Source: Eledone cirrhosa
Taxonomy: Eukaryota
NCBI GenBank assembly: GCA_964016885.1
Contig: OZ024741.1
Location: 165,912,001-165,976,000, forward strand
Length of the DNA: 64,000 nucleotides
Direction: 5' to 3'
Positions 5,010 to 56,460 of this stretch are shown one piece after another. The notes under the pieces are model-generated. The model saw nothing but the letters and a program-made list of their open reading frames with translations. It was not told where the DNA came from and searched no databases. The first letter of the stretch is position 1. Every line of letters begins with the position of its first letter. The translations under genes and the position numbers were made by a program.

Positions 5010-5885
5010 CGACGTTCTCGGGGAAACTCTAGGCACCGAGGAAGACGAACTGACCAGTCTGTTCGGGAGGACTTTTCGTCCAGGGCCTATGGATAACTTC
5101 CAGAGGTCTCTGGCCTGGGAGTGCTACCGAGGAGCTCTACCAATTCGAGACAAAATCTACAGGCACGGATGCCCTAGCAGAGATCCTGCCAAAAGGGCCT
5201 GTCCAAGATGCGAGCAGGACATCGAAACCGTTCTGCACGCAATTGTTCAGTGCCCAGGGGTGACCGACCTGTGGAATTATGTCGAACAGCTACTGTCACG
5301 TGTAGGACGCATCCAGTTGTCAGCCGAGTCCACCGTGAGGATCACCTCGCCGCCTTCATTTAAGAATGAAGGAGAGGCGGTCTTCCTCTGTCTGGTGGCT
5401 ATGGCGAAAGAGGTAATATGGTGGACGAGGTTAAAAGGACTGAGGGCAAGCACCCTTCTCTCCGGACAAAAACTTATCCCCTTCTTTAAGTACGACTTCT
5501 GAAGGAAGGTGAGAGTGGAGAGAGAGGTGCTACACCCCAGTAAATTCGCTGAACGGTGGGTGAATGTGGCGAAAATGGCCCGAGTGAATGGGCCTTCTCT
5601 GTATATAAACCTGTAGGTTGAGGAAGATAAACAGAGGGAAGACGGGAACACCTCAAAACATGTTCCTGGTATCGAGGGTTGTTCTATCCACTGTGTGTAA
5701 AACAACCACGCAGTGGCGTTACCCCCCCCCCCCCATGGGGATTTCAACTGTTTTATTTTTATATAGTTTATTGTTATTTATCATTGTTAATGATTTTATG
5801 TAAATCCCCCGCCGTCACGTCTTGTAATGTCCCATTTTTGTACGCCCCTGTGGCAAATAAAGAAAGATATCTATCTATCTATCTA
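5010..5885 (+). mobile_element. 5'-truncated Tx1/L1-like LINE (C-terminal zinc-finger region of ORF2)
   Basis: ORF 4786-5502 contains CPRCEQDIETVLHAIVQCP..LW (zf-RVT-like) and KEVIWWTR; ends AATAAA plus (TCTA)n. Confidence 0.75.
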
Positions 5886-6038
5886 TCTGTCTATCTGTCT
5901 GTCTGTCTGTCTTCGGGCTTCCAGTGAGATTCCTGCGTTGTTGTTGTTATTATTATTGTTGTTCTTGTCCGAAGATAGACACATTGGTAAATATACATAA
6001 ATAGATAAGTAAGTAGGTAGGTAGATATATATATATAT

Positions 6039-6079
<41 letters not shown>

Positions 6080-6361
6080 GAATTGGTAGATAGAGATAGG
6101 CAGATAGAGATAGATTAAGAGACAGTTAGACAAACAGACCGACAGACAAATTGTCCGACGATAGATAGATACATAAGGACAGAGCTGTTAGCCACTGCAA
6201 CTCTGTGTGTATACACATATATATACACACACATATGGGCAGATATCTTTAGATAGTTGTTATACCACTGTTCAGAAGGGGAATATCACAACACATGCAT
6301 TTTCAAATCCCCCCCCCCCCCCCAATATATCATTAAGTGGTTATCACATGGCCTTGCGTTT

Positions 6362-6552
6362 TGGTGGTTTGGCAGTATCGGTAGAGAGTCGGACGCCATG
6401 CTTTGCAGCATAGAGTTACGCCCCTTTACGGTCTGAGTTCAAATCTCGCCGAGGTTAACTTTGCCTTTCATCCTTACGGGGTTGATAAAATAAAGTACCA
6501 GTAATGCACTGGGATAATTGCTGGCCTTGTGCCAGAAGTAGAAACAATTATT
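6362..6552 (+). mobile_element. tRNA-derived SINE
   Basis: Full copy with A/B boxes and the family core. Confidence 0.85.
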
Positions 6553-6553
6553 A

Positions 6554-6653
<100 letters not shown>

Positions 6654-26936: not shown

Positions 26937-27582
<646 letters not shown>

Positions 27583-27992: not shown

Positions 27993-30900
27993 TCATTTTT
28001 TTCTGTTTAGCCTTGGCCTTCTAAGTTCTATTTCGCTGGCCTCTCTGATTTGCCTATCTGCTGGGTCATTTCTATGTTTAGATATTCTAATTTCTATGTT
28101 GTCTATGTTACCGTCGTGTTGTTGTCTGGCATGTTCGTATAGTACTGAACCGTTTTTTCGTCCTTTTAGTTCCCCCCAGTGTTGGTCTATCCTTTCACCT
28201 ATGCTGCGAGCTGTCTCGCCTATGTATGTTGTTGTCATGTTTCTGCAAGTACCCTCTGTACATCTTATGCTATAGACTACGTTTCTAGTTTTACAGTTTA
28301 TCCGGGGGTTTACTTTACATATAATACATTTCCTATTAGTACAGTGGGTTTTCTTAAAAGGGTAGGTTTTGCTGATCAGAGATTTTATGGTGGTTCCTGG
28401 CTTCTCTACCACCTTAATCTTTAAGTGGGTCTTTTTCAGGGCCTTTCTACACTGGTTAGCTAATTTCTCTCCAGGGGTAGCGTCCACAAACATGACACTC
28501 TGGTATCTCTGGTTGTCGTACCATGAGGTGGCTTTCCCTATCTTATGTCTAGTCCTTACTAAGCTACTCCATGATTTGCTCCTGTATAATGGGCAAATTC
28601 CTTTCATGTCCAGTTCTATGAGGGTCTTATACTTCTCCGCGGCTCCTTCGTATACTCTGATTCTGTCTCTTTGGTTGTAGCCAGAGAACTGCGTGCGGTT
28701 GATGAAGTGTTGGATGTGTCTTTCCATTTCTGTTGGGTCGCACATGCGGGACACGTTCTTCATCACTCGTACCAAGTCTGCGATCAGAATATTAAACTTA
28801 GCACTACTGGCCATTGCTGAGACTTTGAGTATCAGGTATTTGGAGGCCATGGGTTTAGCATAGTGTGAGTGGAGAATTTGGGCTCTCTCGTCTATAGTGT
28901 TAATCCAGAGTACCGGGTCTAATACAGGTAGTCTATTGTTAGGGTGTTTGGAAGGGTAGTCGATAGTTACAGTTATACTCTGGTGTATGGAATTAGCTAT
29001 CTGCTGGATGCTTTCCATTGTGCTACGTTCTAAATCGAACTTGTTAGTACTCTCTTGTGGGGATGTCCTTATTACTATATTGATGTCGTCTGCGTAACGA
29101 GAGTACATGATGATGTCTATGGAGCTCTCATCAAGGAGATCTTTGAGTCTCCTTTCCCACCATACCATAAAAAGGTTGGCAAACGTCACCAGCTATGCTG
29201 ACGCCAATGGCTGCTCCCTCATTTTGGGTGTAGATTTTCTCGTTGAATTTGAATATGTGGCCCTTGAGGGTAGTTTTGATACTAGCCCCTATTGCATGTG
29301 CGACCATTTTTATTACCTGATCATTGTTTTGGGGGATCCGTATAGCTTTAGTCCACCCAATCCACCTTCCCATGGGAGTCTTTTTTGCCATTGAGGTTAT
29401 GGTGGGGGGGTCTACCTCTTATGGGTCTACTGGGGCAGAAACGTCTAAGGTCATGGCTGTCTAGGTAGTCAGTGTCATAGGTATGTCTAAGTAGGAGACC
29501 CAGTTCGTCTGTGTCGACGTCGCAGAACTCCACCTTACTCTCAATGATCATCTCCACACATTTTTCCACAGCAAAATCAATGTTAATGGATGGGTACAGT
29601 GATACCACATTCATACTGCCTATTATGCAGTTGGATAGGTTCCTGTTTTTGTTGCACTCACTGATTCTGCTGAGGAGGACCTCTGTACTGTCACATACAT
29701 CTGGGACATCTTATTATGGGGCGTATAACCATTGAGAGGAAGTAGGAGATCCTGTAGTTGCTAGCTATATTTGCTCCGCATACAGGTCTTGTTGGTGGTC
29801 CTGTTGTCGGGTCGTCGACTGTCTTGTGGTCTTTGCGGAGCCCATACAAGGGTGGTATGCCATTGTTAGACGCCTGGAAGTTGTTGGCAGTGCGTCTGCT
29901 TGGCTTTAGGATGTCGGTCCACATCATCATGTGAGTGTTGAGGATTTTCTCTCTCCCATCATGTATTTGCTGTGCAATTTCGCTCGTGTTGGTGATGTAG
30001 GGTTGCATAGCCTTGATGTAGTTCGGCATGCTGTCTATTGACATACTACCAGACTTATCCGTGGGTAGACACACTACCTCACCATCCCTTGTGCGTTGCT
30101 TGAGGCTAACCAAGCCTTCTACAGGTTTCCTCCTAAGTTGTTGGGCCTCTGGTCTGCTCTGTCTCTTAGTATATCGGTCTACTATTTGTCTAATCTTATT
30201 TCTAGCTATGGTGAACTGTGCCTCTGTCTCGTCATCTATTTGTTGTGGTATGCAAACCCTTTTATTAAAGGGTAACCTCGTAGGATAGATATTACCCATC
30301 TTATATGTTTTGTCAGCTGGGTTGAAGAATAGTTTCTCTAAGGGGATGTCATTATATCTATCGTCATAGTTGTGAGTGTTGCTATTATTGTTATTATGGT
30401 GGTTGTTGTTGTTCCTATCATTAGCACTATTATTATTGTTATGGTTGCTAGATGTATTGTTGCTGTGATTGTTAGATGTATTGTTGTTGTTTTCTCCACC
30501 GTTATTGTTGTTGTTACTGTTATTTCTACCATTGTGGTTGTTACTTTTATTATGTTTCTTGTTATGTTATTATGTTGCTACATATATTATTTCTATTATT
30601 ACCACTGTGGTTGTTGTTGTTACTCGTATTGTTATCATTATTATTACTGTGGTCGCTGCTGCTGTGTCTATCGTTAATGTTTCTATTATTATTATTATTA
30701 TTGTGGTTGTTGTTGTTGTTGTTGTTCTGTCTATCGTTAATATTATTACCATTATTATTATTACAATTTCTCACTCTCCTGTTATTGTTATGACTATTAC
30801 TATTATAGCTATTATTTCTATACTCAGAGTTATTGTTTATATTACTACTATCGTTATTATTGTTGTTGCTGTCCGTATAGTTGTTGTTGTTGTTTACTTT

Positions 30901-31816: not shown

Positions 31817-32634
31817 TATGTTTCCTCCCGTTGTATTGTATGCCTACGCCATCTTTATTTAGTCTGTTTATTTATTTATTTATTTTTTTTTTTGTCTTCT
31901 CTGCGCATGCGTTTGCGTGTGTGTATAGTGTTTTGTTTGATGTGTGTTCGTGTTTGGGTGACTGTGTATTGGTTATTGTATTCTATCTTAGTTTACTAGT
32001 GTGTGTTTATATGTGTTTGTTGTTATTGTGCTTGTGTATTTATTTATTTATTTATTTATACTTCCCTTAGGTCAGTGTTGTTTGTTTGGGTGTTTTTGTT
32101 ATTCCATTCATTTTTTTTTCTGTTTAGCCTTGGCCTTCTAAGTTCTATTTCGCTGGCCTCTCTGATTTGCCTATCTGCTGGGTCATTTCTATGTTTAGAT
32201 ATTCTAATTTCTATGTTGTCTATGTTACCGTCGTGTTGTTGTCTGGCATGTTCGTATAGTACTGAACCGTTTTTTCGTCCTTTTAGTTCCCCCCAGTGTT
32301 GGTCTATCCTTTCACCTATGTTGCGAGCTGTCTCGCCTATGTATGTTGTTGTCATGTTTCTGCAAGTACCCCTGTACATCTTATGCTATAGACTACGTTT
32401 CTAGTTTTACAGTTTATCCGGGCGTTTACTTTACATATAATACATTTCCTATTAGTACAGTGGGTTTTCTTAAAAGGGTAGGTTTTGCTGATCAGAGATT
32501 TTATGGTGGTTTCTGGCTTTTCTACCACCTTAATTTTTAAGTGGGTCTTTCTCAGGGCCTTTCTACACTGGTTAGCTAATTTCCCTCCAGGAGTAGCGTC
32601 CACAATATATATATATATATATATATATGTTGGC

Positions 32635-33046: not shown

Positions 33047-33050
<4 letters not shown>

Positions 33051-33920
33051 CCGTCCTAACCACCATCCTAAACCTTGTTTTTAATAATCACACAGTTCCT
33101 TTCGTTTCATAACTTTTTGTATTTACCGCTGTGATTCTACCTGCTTTGGTCCATCTGTATTCCCTCCACACTTTCGCATCGACCCTCGCTTCTCTCTTCC
33201 CTTCTTCTCCTGACTCGTTTTTTTCTTCTCTCCCTCTCACTCTCTATCCATCCGTTCGGTTTTGATTGTTGACATGTTTACACGTGCCGTGGTGGCCTCT
33301 CTGTTCGCAATCTTTGCGGCACGTTTTTACCACCGTCGTAAAAAAAACCCTTCTGGATTATCTCTCTTTCCATTCTCCTCACTTCTGGTTGCCCGTGTCT
33401 CTCTCACTTTCTCCTTTCTATGTGAGAGGCAGCACGATTATACCAGCTCTGAGTCGTAGCTGACCACCAGGCTAAAGTCTCCCAGGTTGGCCATAACTTA
33501 CTTTCCCGATTTTTCCACGGTTACTTTTTTGCATGTTTCTTTCACCTGTGACTTCCCACGATGGGATCTGTATACTTTTTTCTCCTATTCCTTTCCTATT
33601 TTTTCCCCTTTTCCCTTCGCCCTTTCTTCCTCTCTCCTCATCTCCACCCCTGTTCTTCCTCCTTTCCTTCTCTTTCCTTTTCTCCCCTTTTTTTCTCATT
33701 TTCTCTCTCCTTTTCCACCTGGCCTTTTGATTAATAAAAGGCCTCGGGCGTACCCGAACTACACCGATGTCCTGTAATTCAGCGCCGAAACATCGGTTCG
33801 GGAAACATTTACAGCTGACGATGGAAACTCCTATCTTCCTTTCTCCTCTTATTCCGTCCTAACCACCATCCTAAACCTTGTTTTTAGTAACCACACAGCT
33901 CCTTTCGTTTCATAACTCTT

Positions 33921-33922
<2 letters not shown>
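33047..33922 (+). mobile_element. Non-coding ~803-nt-period element with ~70-bp terminal direct repeat, inserted in (TA)n; carries the reordered hammerhead-like motif
   Basis: 33049-33119 repeats at 33852-33922; 5'-truncated second copy at 48131-48695. Confidence 0.8.
33711..33827 (+). ncRNA. Non-canonically ordered (NUH, GAAA, CUGACGA) hammerhead-like RNA
   Basis: ACCGATGT-C-CTGTAA..GCGCC-GAA-ACATCGGT..TTACAG-CTGACGA-TGGAAA; see findings. Confidence 0.65.
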
Positions 33923-36934: not shown

Positions 36935-37236
36935 TGCGTATGTGTGTGCGTGCGTATGTGTGTGTGCGTGTATGTGTGTGTGCGTGTGTGAGCGCGTGTG
37001 TGTATGTGTGTGTGTGGCTATTTCAGTCATTTGTTACTCACCGTAGTCAACTTAAATGAAATCTATGTAACCTGTAATTTAATAAATTGCCTTGCTAATT
37101 AAGTTATAATAATGCATAATGTAATTAATGTAAATAATTAAATGTTAAACTATGTATGAGAGTTTCATCTTATTTGTCACATTCGTTCGCTGTAATCAAA
37201 TCTAGAAATCTTCTTCAATATCGTTGGTCACATCGT

Positions 37237-37555
37237 TAAGTCACGTGATATGTATCTCTCCAATCACCATCGCACATTTATGTCAGTCAACCAAACATTT
37301 GCAGCTAATCATTAAGTCACGTGACATAAATCTCTCCAATCACCATCGCACATTTATGTCAGTCAACCAAACATTTGCAGCTAATCATTAAGTCACGTGA
37401 CATAAATCTCTCCAATCACCATCGCACATTTATGTCAGTCAACCAAACATTTGCAGCTAATCATTAAGTCACGTGACATAAATCTATCCAATCACCATCG
37501 CACATTTATGACAGTCAACCAAACGTCACATGACATAATCTCTCCAATCACAATT
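37237..37555. repeat. 76-bp tandem repeat, about 4 copies
   Basis: TCACGTGA starts at 37241, 37317, 37393, 37469. Confidence 0.95.
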
Positions 37556-40792: not shown

Positions 40793-41938
40793 TGTATGTA
40801 TGTATGTATGTATGTATGTATGTATGTATGTATGTATGTATGTATGTATGTATGTATGTATGTATGTATGTATGTATGTATGTTACCGATGATGTTGATC
40901 TTTTCTTCTTTTCGGGTTATAGCTACTGTCGCTCAGAGAGTGGGATTGGTTCAGTGCACAGTCTTTCCTCACTTTAAAAAATGTCTTCATGCACAGGCAT
41001 TGCACGATAGATTTAATTAATAATTATTAATAATGGTATATCATGCAATGGCCATACTCGATAACGAGGGGGCAGCCATCATCATCATGTATGTATGTAT
41101 GTATGTATGTATGTATGTATGTATGTATGTATGTATGTATGTGTGCATATATGTGTGCATGTATGTATGTATGTGTATATGCATGTACGTATGTATGCAT
41201 GTATGTGTGTGTGTATGCATGTATGTATGTGTGTATGCATGTATGTATGTGTGTATGCATGTATGCATGTATGTATCCATTATGTATTATGTATGTATGC
41301 ATGTATGTATGTATGCATGTATATATGTATTTATGCATGTATATATCTATGTATGAATGTATGCATATATCTCTATGTCGGTATGTATGTGCGTAAGCAC
41401 GTACGTGCGTATGTATGTATATATGTAGGTATGTATATATGTAGGTATGTATATATGTAGGTATGTATATATGTAGGTATGTATATATGTAGGTATGTAT
41501 ACATGTAGGTATGTATATGTAAGTATGAAAGAACGTTTGCATATATATATATATTCTTAAGTTTATCAATACTAATGTGATGTACGTGTTATCTCGCCAC
41601 CTATATTTCAATGGCTCACTTTATTTCATTTTTAACACGATATTTAACTTTCTTCTTGCTTCTTGTTTTATCTATGTCTCTCATGCTAAAGAAGCACCAC
41701 ACGTTTTCCCTAACGTCACAGAAGTCTCTATGTATCTGTTGTAGCTTAATTGCTATATATTAATGTTTTGTCCCACGTCTCTTGCCCCTATTTTCTCAAA
41801 AATTATATTTGGGTATATATATATGTATTCATTAAAATAACAGATTAAAGTTTAAGCAAAGAACCGCTGCTTTCACCCTTAACGGGATCTTCTGAGCCCA
41901 CTTTGGATTTAGTCTTCACATTTATTATATATATATAT

Positions 41939-42163
41939 GGATTGAGGAAGGCGAGGCTGTGTGGTTACTGATAACGAGTGTTAGAAGGTAAGGCGACACC
42001 AACTTTTATCTATCAACATGGCTTGTTGATAGATAAAAGGCTATGGGCGCGCTATGGATAGATGTTCTGTTTATAATGCGCCGAAACATCCATGATCCGT
42101 AGTAAACAGCTGACGAAGGGAAACTTCCATCTCGTGTTTGTGCCGCCTTACCTTCTAACACCC
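41939..42163 (+). mobile_element. Short (TA)n-flanked element with inverted 5' segment, carrying the reordered hammerhead-like motif (42046-42123)
   Basis: 41978-41998 is inverse to 42141-42161; 16-bp hairpin 42003-42039; GATGT-T-CTGTTTA..GCGCC-GAA-ACATC..TAAACAG-CTGACGA. Confidence 0.7.
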
Positions 42164-42216
<53 letters not shown>

Positions 42217-42223
<7 letters not shown>

Positions 42224-42521
42224 GAGAAGAATGAATACTGCGTGGTTGCACATGGGTTACATATGAAAAAAATAGTCCTTCATCAGTGATTTTCCAACCT
42301 TCATTGGTATTTCATCGCTTTAAAAATCATATACCTCCAGTTGGTGCGAGCAATAGCTAAATAAAGCTATTGGGACAAGTAAATCGCGTAAAGCGAGCGA
42401 GACAAGTAAACAAACATAGAAGGATAGCAACGCAAAGATAGGAAAAAACAAGCCCACGGGAGTCCGATCAGCTTAAGCTGTGTGGATTTCATGAGCGAGA
42501 GACAACAGACCGTGCGACGCA
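42217..42521 (-). mobile_element. (TA)n-flanked element carrying the reordered hammerhead-like motif (42275-42376); truncated copy at 56308-56393
   Basis: RC: GTCC-hairpin-TCGC-A-CCAACT-GGA-GGTAT-A-TGATTTT..GCGA-T-GAA-ATACC..GGTTGG-AAAATCA-CTGATGA-A-GGAC. Confidence 0.7.
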
Positions 42522-42776
42522 TATATATATATATATATAAGCTAGGGTGTGGTAAAAAAACGGATGGACCATAACCCACCAGAGTACTGAATACTTGGGG
42601 TATTAGAGGGGGTAATATGAAAAGATTCAGGAAGGACCCCGACGGCTGAGCTCCGACCATTTCGAAAGTTAGATCAGAACTAAAGCGCTAGATTCCCGCC
42701 TTCGAATACTGGCGCCTTATTTCGGAACTAGCTGTCGAAACGCCCGGATCTCAGCCGTCGGGGTCCTGAATCTTTT

Positions 42777-42811
<35 letters not shown>

Positions 42812-47965: not shown

Positions 47966-48130
47966 TCCTGATAAACATTGATGGTCGAATAAATTAACTA
48001 TGGTGATATAAAAGATGCAGAAGCTAAAACCAACCAAACAGTGAGTGTGTTCTGTTATTATTTCTGGCAATATTATTACAACAATATCATCCTCCCCAAG
48101 TATAACAAAATGTATATATATATATATATA

Positions 48131-48690
48131 ACCCTTCTGGATTATCTCCCTTTCCCTTCCCCCCACTTCTGGTTGCCCGTGTCTCTCTCTCACTTTCTCC
48201 TGTCTATGTGAGAGGCAGCACGATTATACCAGCTCTGAGTCGTAGCTGACCACCAGGCTAAAGTCTCCCAGGTTGGCCACAACTTACTTTCCCGATTTTT
48301 CCACGGTTACTTGTTTGCGTGTTTCTTTCACCTGTGTCTTCCCACGATGGGATCTGCACACTTTTTTCTTCTATTGCTTTCCTATTTTTCCCCCTTCTTC
48401 CTCTCTCCTCATCCTTTTCCCCCCTGTTCTTCCTCCTTTCCCTCTCTTTCCTTTTCTCTCTCCCTTTGTTCTCTCTTTCCCTCTCCTTTTCCACCTGGCC
48501 CTTTGATTAATAAAAGGCCTCGGACGCACCCGCACTACACCGATGTCCTGTAATTCAGCGCCGAAACATCGGTTCGGGAAACATTTACAGCTGACGATGG
48601 AAACTCCTTTCTTCCTTTCTCCTCCTGTTTTGTCCTAACCACCATACTAAACCTTGTTTTTAGTAACCACACAGCTCCTTTCGTTTCATA

Positions 48691-48695
<5 letters not shown>
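48131..48695 (+). mobile_element. 5'-truncated copy of the 33047-33922 element; motif at 48488-48603
   Basis: High similarity to 33348-33915; (TA)n on both flanks. Confidence 0.85.
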
Positions 48696-56280: not shown

Positions 56281-56389
56281 TACTGTATATACATATATAT
56301 ATATATATAAAAAACATGAGAAGAAAGGTTACATATGATAAAAATAGTCCTTCATCAGTGATTTTCCAACCTTCATTGGTATTACATCG

Positions 56390-56460
<71 letters not shown>

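Follow-up and report, generated by a model that had tools for sequence, protein, structure and literature searches.

Nucleotides 42376–42275 on the minus strand of the 64,000-nt stretch of Eledone cirrhosa DNA analyzed here (the window) are predicted to fold as a hammerhead-type RNA whose conserved blocks start with the cut site, continue with GAAA and end with CUGAUGA, and which has a four-way junction next to its core. To judge from the sequence, this 102-nt RNA, embedded in a non-coding Penelope-like repeat, is likely a self-cleaving ribozyme of the Naiad lineage, with the cut predicted after A42330. Its designation as a non-circularly permuted hammerhead-type RNA (42275–42376, minus strand) draws on the sequence, on a descriptor that allows all block orders, and on covariation. 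Read 5′ to 3′ on the minus strand, its elements are the 5′ strand of helix a, a hairpin, the 5′ strands of helices b and e, stem III, the cut site, stem I, a linker, the 3′ strand of helix b, GAAA, the 3′ strands of stem III, helix e and stem I, CUGAUGA and the 3′ strand of helix a; every segment listed in an earlier note on this DNA was found at its minus-strand place in a coordinate check. Both hammerhead core strings, CUGAnGA and GAAA, are present, the catalytic CUGAUGA (C3–A9) at 42280–42286 and the catalytic GAAA (G12–A15.1) at 42310–42313, positions confirmed by the same check. The AUA triplet at 42329–42332 supplies the NUH triplet between stems III and I together with the A15.1–U16.1 pair, and the predicted cut (42330/42329) is placed by analogy with hammerheads; relatives carry AUC, GUC, GUU or GUA. 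The strand 5′ of GAAA pairs, as helix b, with an upstream strand and not with the strand 3′ of CUGAUGA, which pairs with the 5′ end of the RNA (helix a). A single 10.1–11.1 pair, A42279–U42314 (42279–42314), is all that joins the CUGAUGA strand to the GAAA strand in this family, which we call F3; among 49 distinct F3-like ribozyme sequences this position is pairable in 41, as A-U, G-U, U-A or G-C. The linker from stem I to the helix b strand is 4 nt long.

Twenty-four variants, hand-picked for diversity, were aligned with the six helices named, and all six covary. Two-sided change is seen in 7/7 pairs of stem I (42287–42329; 42329–42323 with 42293–42287), 3/5 pairs of stem III (42306–42335; 42335–42331 with 42310–42306; 92–94% of cells paired), 5/6 pairs of helix e (42294–42344; 42344–42339 with 42299–42294), 5/7 pairs of the hairpin (42372–42351), 3/4 pairs of helix a, which closes the fold (42275–42376; 42376–42373 with 42278–42275), and 1/4 pairs of helix b (42315–42349; 42349–42346 with 42318–42315; 93.8% of cells paired), the least variable helix in this genome. 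Stems I and III, both covarying, stand in hammerhead register with the core. Taken together, 86.7% of 791 cells are paired and 24 of 33 pairs show two-sided change, values that none of 500 shuffles reached, although relatedness among the sequences may be enough to outdo shuffles of this kind and part of two alignment rows is misaligned; sliding the partners against each other leaves 28–44% of cells paired. Further pair types, one of five covariation measures, were not exceptional (62/500 shuffles), and the invariance of CUGA.GA in 24/24 rows is to be read with the fact that the variants were picked for it. Minimum-energy folding recovers helices a and e, the hairpin and stem III; helices b and I are absent from it because they cross the others as pseudoknots, as expected. 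Folding the whole F3 unit as a circle was uninformative. That the fold is real and conserved we regard as practically certain.

The descriptor accepts any order of three blocks, S (cut site), G (GAAA) and C (CUGAnGA), and returned four S-G-C cores in the 64-kb window, at 33770 (plus), 42065 (plus), 48546 (plus) and 42331 (minus), with the outer helices complete in three of them. In 100 dinucleotide shuffles of 500-nt blocks the mean was 0.03 cores and 0.02 full matches, with a maximum of 1; this comparison, 4 cores against 0.03 per shuffle, bears out the earlier note's judgment that chance is unlikely. Matches in other block orders comprise two at a tandem near 27.2 kb and one at 6.7 kb. Family F1 occupies 33047–33922 (plus) as a partial tandem of an 800-bp unit, its candidate ribozyme lying at 33712–33828 with a GUC triplet, and has a second copy at 48130–48695 (plus) with the candidate ribozyme at about 48488–48604. 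Family F2 forms an inverted pair at 41936–42165 (listed on the plus strand), made up of a long-tailed minus copy (41936–42003) and a plus copy (42017–42165, core 42065–42116) that lacks the 5′ strand of helix a; the 16-bp palindrome at 42005–42041 is the junction of this pair and not the normal F2 hairpin. The plus-strand F2 and minus-strand F3 copies were also considered as one two-strand element, which was rejected, the two being separate insertions split by (TA)n. A truncated F3 copy lies at 56311–56404 (minus), with GTAA for GAAA, no cut-site block and a tail deletion; the earlier note had recognized the truncation and the GTAA, to which 5′ truncation within the linker and the loss of about 23 nt of tail have now been added. 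Two further repeats lie nearby: a short inverted-arrangement repeat between (TA)n runs at 42541–42780, which adjoins the F3 copy, has a relative in locus L180 and shows no hammerhead core, and a 76-bp tandem repeat at 37232–37524 (3.9 copies, 97% matches).

The three window families are 45–63% alike over the aligned fold and have non-catalytic letters and a 3′ motif in common. The description of the F3 sequence as having almost no identity to the others was thus overstated: 42376–42275 agrees with the 33.7-kb family in 45% (50/110) and with a member of the 42.06-kb family in 50% (57/113) of aligned columns. On this alignment the three families are homologous, sharing an ancestor, and do not represent three independent origins; their agreement is therefore evidence of covariation rather than of independent origins. 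In the 3.0-Gb genome, first-look candidates number 2,827 for F3, the best 40 of which are 98–100% alike, and 992 and 887 for the other two window families. The core is intact in 28 of the best 30 F3 loci, and 17 of the other 29 are identical to the 42376–42275 copy over its 102 nt. A loose pattern, GCGNNGAAAN{18,34}CTGAYGA, finds 20,843 places in the genome, and its reversed control finds 126; 11 of 100 listed matches fall outside the ribozyme family, 10 of these in a Penelope-like family with a classical hammerhead, and, after off-family matches, the true copies of the fold are estimated at roughly 18,000. The reading as a reordered-strand hammerhead with six helices common to the families, already proposed in the earlier note, is thus supported by covariation in all six helices, by the genome-wide excess over control and by the same layout, in unrelated letters, at nine Naiad loci described below. 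That short motifs came together by chance in A/T-rich repeat DNA, a reading for which the shortness of the single strings and those 11 off-family matches might speak, has negligible probability, contradicted as it is by the shuffle, reversed-pattern, antisense and slid-pair controls.

The closest described RNAs are the type-SGC hammerheads of Eckert et al. 2023 (PMC10085705), for which cleavage in the S-G-C order was demonstrated, at rates of 0.007–0.19 per minute for the relatives. In the covered parts of that paper these RNAs (HRIMA-1 and variants) come from metatranscriptomes and none from the genome of a known organism, whereas the present fold sits in an animal genome in thousands of copies. 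The order of cut site, GAAA and CUGAnGA is the same, as are all catalytic letters, and 42376–42275 also has the short stem I linker and a helix that bridges the sides of stems I and II; the published pattern allows a linker of 0–8 nt between stems I and II and includes a stem I–II interaction helix (PMC10085705), of which helix e is, by analogy, the probable counterpart. The difference is in stem II. The published pattern places the stem II strand, pairing next to CGAAA, directly after CUGAUGA[U]G, its authors having assumed CUGAnGA and this strand to be inseparable (PMC10085705), and the tested RNAs have a normal, contiguous stem II; the F3 fold lacks one, and its RNA ends within helix a. According to the published CUGAUGAUG pattern, some natural hammerheads tolerate one extra base at the A9/10.1 step (PMC10085705). 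In F1 and F2 the base after the core cannot pair with 11.1, and a G of the upstream strand faces C11.1, the F2 register being ambiguous in 13 rows of this assessment; closure of stem II by this upstream-strand G-C pair would be the geometry in F1, F2 and the Naiads. We describe the fold as type SGC enlarged by a domain of two helices, which enters at the A9/10.1 step or one pair past it; this would mean that a whole inserted domain is tolerated at this step and that a four-way junction sits beside the catalytic core.

The strand order, short linker and interaction helix would also suit a standard type-SGC hammerhead whose stem II is contiguous and in which helices a, b and the hairpin are incidental, a reading we hold to be very improbable: in the 20 core variants listed the strand after CUGAnGA and that before GAAA share at most 1–3 pairing bases, the contiguous stem II amounts to 0–1 bases in the nine Naiad loci, and helices a and b and the hairpin are conserved or covarying. 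The published core with its stem II requirement, re-coded, fits 0/3 window families, and the fold is therefore classed as SGC-like in its working, not as a member. A type I hammerhead was rejected for F3, the order being S-G-C. The Rfam matches contain no hammerhead family, neither among the 150 of 274 listed for the window nor among the four for 42225–42520, where the best, snR66, was rejected (26.6 bits against a gathering score of 65). In the literature on animals and Naiads that was searched, which took in few subscription papers, figures and supplements, we found no description of this form or of a Naiad ribozyme; the term type-SGC occurred in one paper only, and the covered parts of PMC10162972 and PMC13725137 describe no such form. 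The earlier note had the architecture right and missed the type-SGC class, the non-contiguous stem II, the carrier element and the Naiad link.

The carrier is a 520-bp non-coding Penelope-like unit, of which the window holds a 304-bp, 5′-truncated copy between (TA)n runs (42217–42520, minus). F3 copies have a fixed 3′ end about 110 nt past the cut, run into (TA)n and are truncated at variable points on the 5′ side; partial tandems with a period near 520 occur in 10/30 F3 loci. The F1 and F2 units are about 800 bp and 715–780 bp long, a related family forms a five-unit tandem (locus L134), and inverted head-to-head pairs are common among units. Two unit 3′ ends lie 40 nt apart, and the 3′ tail between the short and long insertion ends (42217–42262, minus) contains, at 42247–42238, the AC-rich motif AACCACGCAG; this motif, conserved between both 3′ ends, is able to base-pair with the beginning of the unit that follows. 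The unit has no reverse transcriptase or endonuclease frame in the part of the open-frame output that was covered. Partial tandems, inverted 5′ copies and a 30–40 bp tail are described as signatures of Penelope-like elements, Naiads included (10.1101/2021.04.23.441226), and all of these, with 5′ truncation, are found here; because its tandems, inverted pairs and two 3′ ends correspond to the described signatures, we read the unit as Penelope-like. For Anolis Poseidon the tail was explained in vitro as the gap between two internal reverse transcription starts in an AC-rich stem-loop (PMC11167929). Poseidon of Anolis (Frangieh et al. 2024, PMC11167929) resembles the unit in its two 3′ start sites, AC-rich sequence and A/T-rich targets, but is autonomous and has a classical hammerhead, and the match is one of anatomy only. 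Animal non-LTR retrozymes, proposed to derive from Penelope-like elements (bioRxiv 10.64898/2026.07.22.740005; PMC7229834), are like F3 short non-coding monomers or tandems with one hammerhead per unit; they are defined and found by type I hammerheads and linked to circular RNA, whereas the F3 unit has the branched, non-circular S-G-C form.

Within the Penelope-like elements the layout points to Naiads. As described by Craig et al. 2021 (bioRxiv 10.1101/2021.04.23.441226, covered in part), these prefer (TA)n and have no detectable hammerhead, although the supplement metadata label 16 of the 54 Naiads HHR_core or HHR_half_core (PMC8557442). A sequence motif led to one decayed genomic fragment, and this to further genome matches (80) and to a protein library whose matches include full-length proteins with an N-terminal GIY-YIG and DKA. 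An alignment of 20 such proteins fetched 80 metagenome loci, 64 of which had at least 250 nt of 3′ flank. Behind 9 of these 64 Naiad-type reverse transcriptase genes the full layout is found in sense within 1,200 nt, in none of them in classical order; antisense flanks gave 0/64 and shuffles 0/320. All nine have DKA, with the N-terminal endonuclease in view in four, and in each C11.1 faces an upstream G while helix b has 5–6 bp of different letters. By eye the layout is also seen further downstream in four more Naiad loci (L224, L229, L230, L257). A covariance model built from this genome alone matches two of the nine loci weakly (E 0.0009 and 0.25); its match in L239 is false, lying in a coding frame without the core. 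The same six helices are seen by eye in the published consensus tails of Naiad_Obim, Naiad_Ovul and three Acropora Naiads, the two octopus tails having the hairpin loop of F3. In the supplement, of which 23/23 CTGACGA and 43/62 CTGATGA places were covered (PMC8557442), several nematode Naiads have tails in which the order is C-S-G and stem II is normal. This is the other non-circular type that Eckert et al. describe, previously known from two metagenome sequences only (PMC10085705). Naiads thus share with the unit, so far as their description was covered, the partial tandems, inverted 5′ copies, 30–40 bp tail, (TA)n targets and tail RNA layout; unlike the F3 unit, they encode an endonuclease/reverse transcriptase. 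On these sequence comparisons the fold very probably shares its origin with the Naiad tail RNA.

The remaining 55 of 64 Naiad flanks gave no match within 1,200 nt, from short flanks or true absence, and none of the Naiad tails examined showed the 3′ motif that is conserved in the units. The Naiad-type fragments found in this genome are all decayed, and no intact ribozyme lies behind them; among 30 loci picked up by a ribozyme pattern of Naiad style, none had a Naiad frame within 1.5 kb. Two strict patterns and one 82-residue query gave no young Naiad, and no intact autonomous partner sharing the 3′ end of the unit was found. One run of a protein search with the decayed fragment found nothing, viral contigs gave no relative, and a YDKRDDF pattern was rejected (2 matches against 3 for its control, both unrelated). 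Protein searches with the classical-hammerhead family returned only C-terminal-endonuclease elements, and a reverse transcriptase from this genome shares 63% identity with a protein of Octopus vulgaris, which fits an octopus-like host. Families that have diverged further but keep the G...C spacing occur in L187, L191, L198, L202, L203, L205, L212 and L214 (at about 1410–1550); the one in L212 has the greatest apparent resemblance to the octopus Naiad tail as published and is decayed, with no open frame within 1.5 kb. In the Naiad loci L224, L229, L230, L231 and L241 the putative ribozyme lies 1.1–1.2 kb past the reverse transcriptase frame, and a further coding stretch, unrelated to the first, may lie in between.

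Self-cleavage at the predicted bond we consider probable for the lineage and somewhat less so for the one-pair family F3, again on sequence grounds. Were the 5′ ends of insertions determined by cleaved RNA, an accumulation of copies beginning at the cut would be expected. F1 allows a comparison free of confounding TA matches: there, 0 copies with an A/T-only flank begin exactly at the cut, and several begin at TA matches nearby. In the AUA families 128 copies start at the predicted cut; among about 24 distinct sites listed, 5 start at the cut and 12 at other TA matches, and we therefore attribute the 128 starts to TATA microhomology. Two F3 partial tandems (L008, L009) extend 5′ past the predicted cut, a read-through that fits circles or an uncut precursor equally. 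The lack of an excess of 5′ ends at the cut and this read-through would also be expected of a fold that descends from a hammerhead and is kept as a binding or folding signal for reverse transcriptase, F3, with one pair for stem II and no G10.1–C11.1, cutting very slowly or not at all. In the same direction point the 8/49 F3-like variants unable to form the adjacent 10.1–11.1 pair and the many Naiad flanks without such a core, by which the clade can spread without it. Against this, the catalytic letters and a non-G cut nucleotide have been kept across families 45–63% alike and across nine Naiad loci; both core strings were search terms, but the NUH triplet and stems I and III at exact register, unneeded by a mere binding site, came along with them. 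A mere signal is thus improbable, and we retain the self-cleaving reading.

In the hammerhead active site G12 acts as the base and G8 as the acid. The present fold would rebuild this active site, with G12 and G8 in the same roles, the short linker from stem I to helix b and helix e holding stems I and II together in the type-SGC fashion and helix a with the hairpin forming a domain inserted at the A9/10.1 step. In the Naiads, F1 and F2 a G of the upstream strand would pair with C11.1; in F3 one adjacent 10.1–11.1 pair would precede the junction. A partial-tandem transcript would then be cut into 520-nt monomers, possibly ligated into circles, and a Penelope-type endonuclease/reverse transcriptase acting in trans would nick (TA)n DNA and begin reverse transcription at either of two internal sites separated by about 40 nt; this would account for the constant 3′ ends and the tail of the units as well as for their varying 5′ ends. 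That tandem transcripts are processed to monomers or circles and copied in trans is, on balance, our expectation.

The Naiad protein is moderately favored as the mover of the units in this genome. Alternatively, the ribozyme is real and the units are moved by another Penelope-like clade, either the abundant C-terminal-endonuclease family with its classical type I hammerhead or a Poseidon-like one; this alternative touches only the question of the mover and leaves the ribozyme reading intact. The best 40 F3 copies are 98–100% alike while the Naiad-type fragments are decayed, young C-terminal-endonuclease families ending in (TA)n are common in this genome, and for one unit a head-to-head junction with a Poseidon-like fragment is seen (L150). 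We find another mover possible and rather unlikely, since the layout lies behind Naiad genes and is contiguous with no other open frame in the loci examined, the published octopus Naiads, in the parts covered, carry the layout and prefer (TA)n, and the search for a young Naiad was as narrow as the two patterns and one query given above. The open frames upstream of loose-pattern matches in L107, L141, L145, L148 and L149 were rejected, belonging to a family whose classical hammerhead fits the loose pattern by accident, as was the L150 open frame as an F3 carrier, which ends in a tail of its own, the F3 copy being a separate insertion. In L150 a unit (5875–5997) stands head-to-head, without (TA)n, with a 5′-truncated Poseidon-like endonuclease fragment (5997–6590), a single case that could be co-integration or chance. 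[quoted passage not shown] The window itself contains Penelope-like fragments with a reverse transcriptase followed by a C-terminal GIY-YIG (27996–29192, 28074–28352 and 32058–32385, minus), and this family ends in a classical hammerhead in L107, L141 and L145. At 27170–27272 (minus) lies a two-unit, 50-bp tandem of a minimal classical-order hammerhead (CUGACGA, short stem II, GAAAC, GUA), a separate Penelope-like tail whose second unit has U for C3.

With slightly better than even confidence, then, we propose a hammerhead architecture outside the six published permutations, its core split at A9/10.1 and rejoined via a four-way junction by a fourth strand, and active; it would be a long-missed Naiad ribozyme across several animal phyla, with the second non-circular order in nematode Naiads, and would drive the spread, by way of circular RNA, of non-coding elements that number tens of thousands in this genome. 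The form escapes standard descriptors and Rfam, and counts of invertebrate ribozymes are therefore probably too low. If true, it would run counter to the published premise that CUGAnGA is inseparable from its stem II strand, and the branch beside the active site would be a natural insertion point of interest to ribozyme engineering. Non-circularly permuted ribozymes would move from anonymous environmental RNA to animal genomes, there in very high copy number. The view of Naiads as elements without hammerheads would be overturned, self-cleaving RNA would be near-universal in endonuclease-bearing Penelope-like elements, and its role in these elements would become directly testable.
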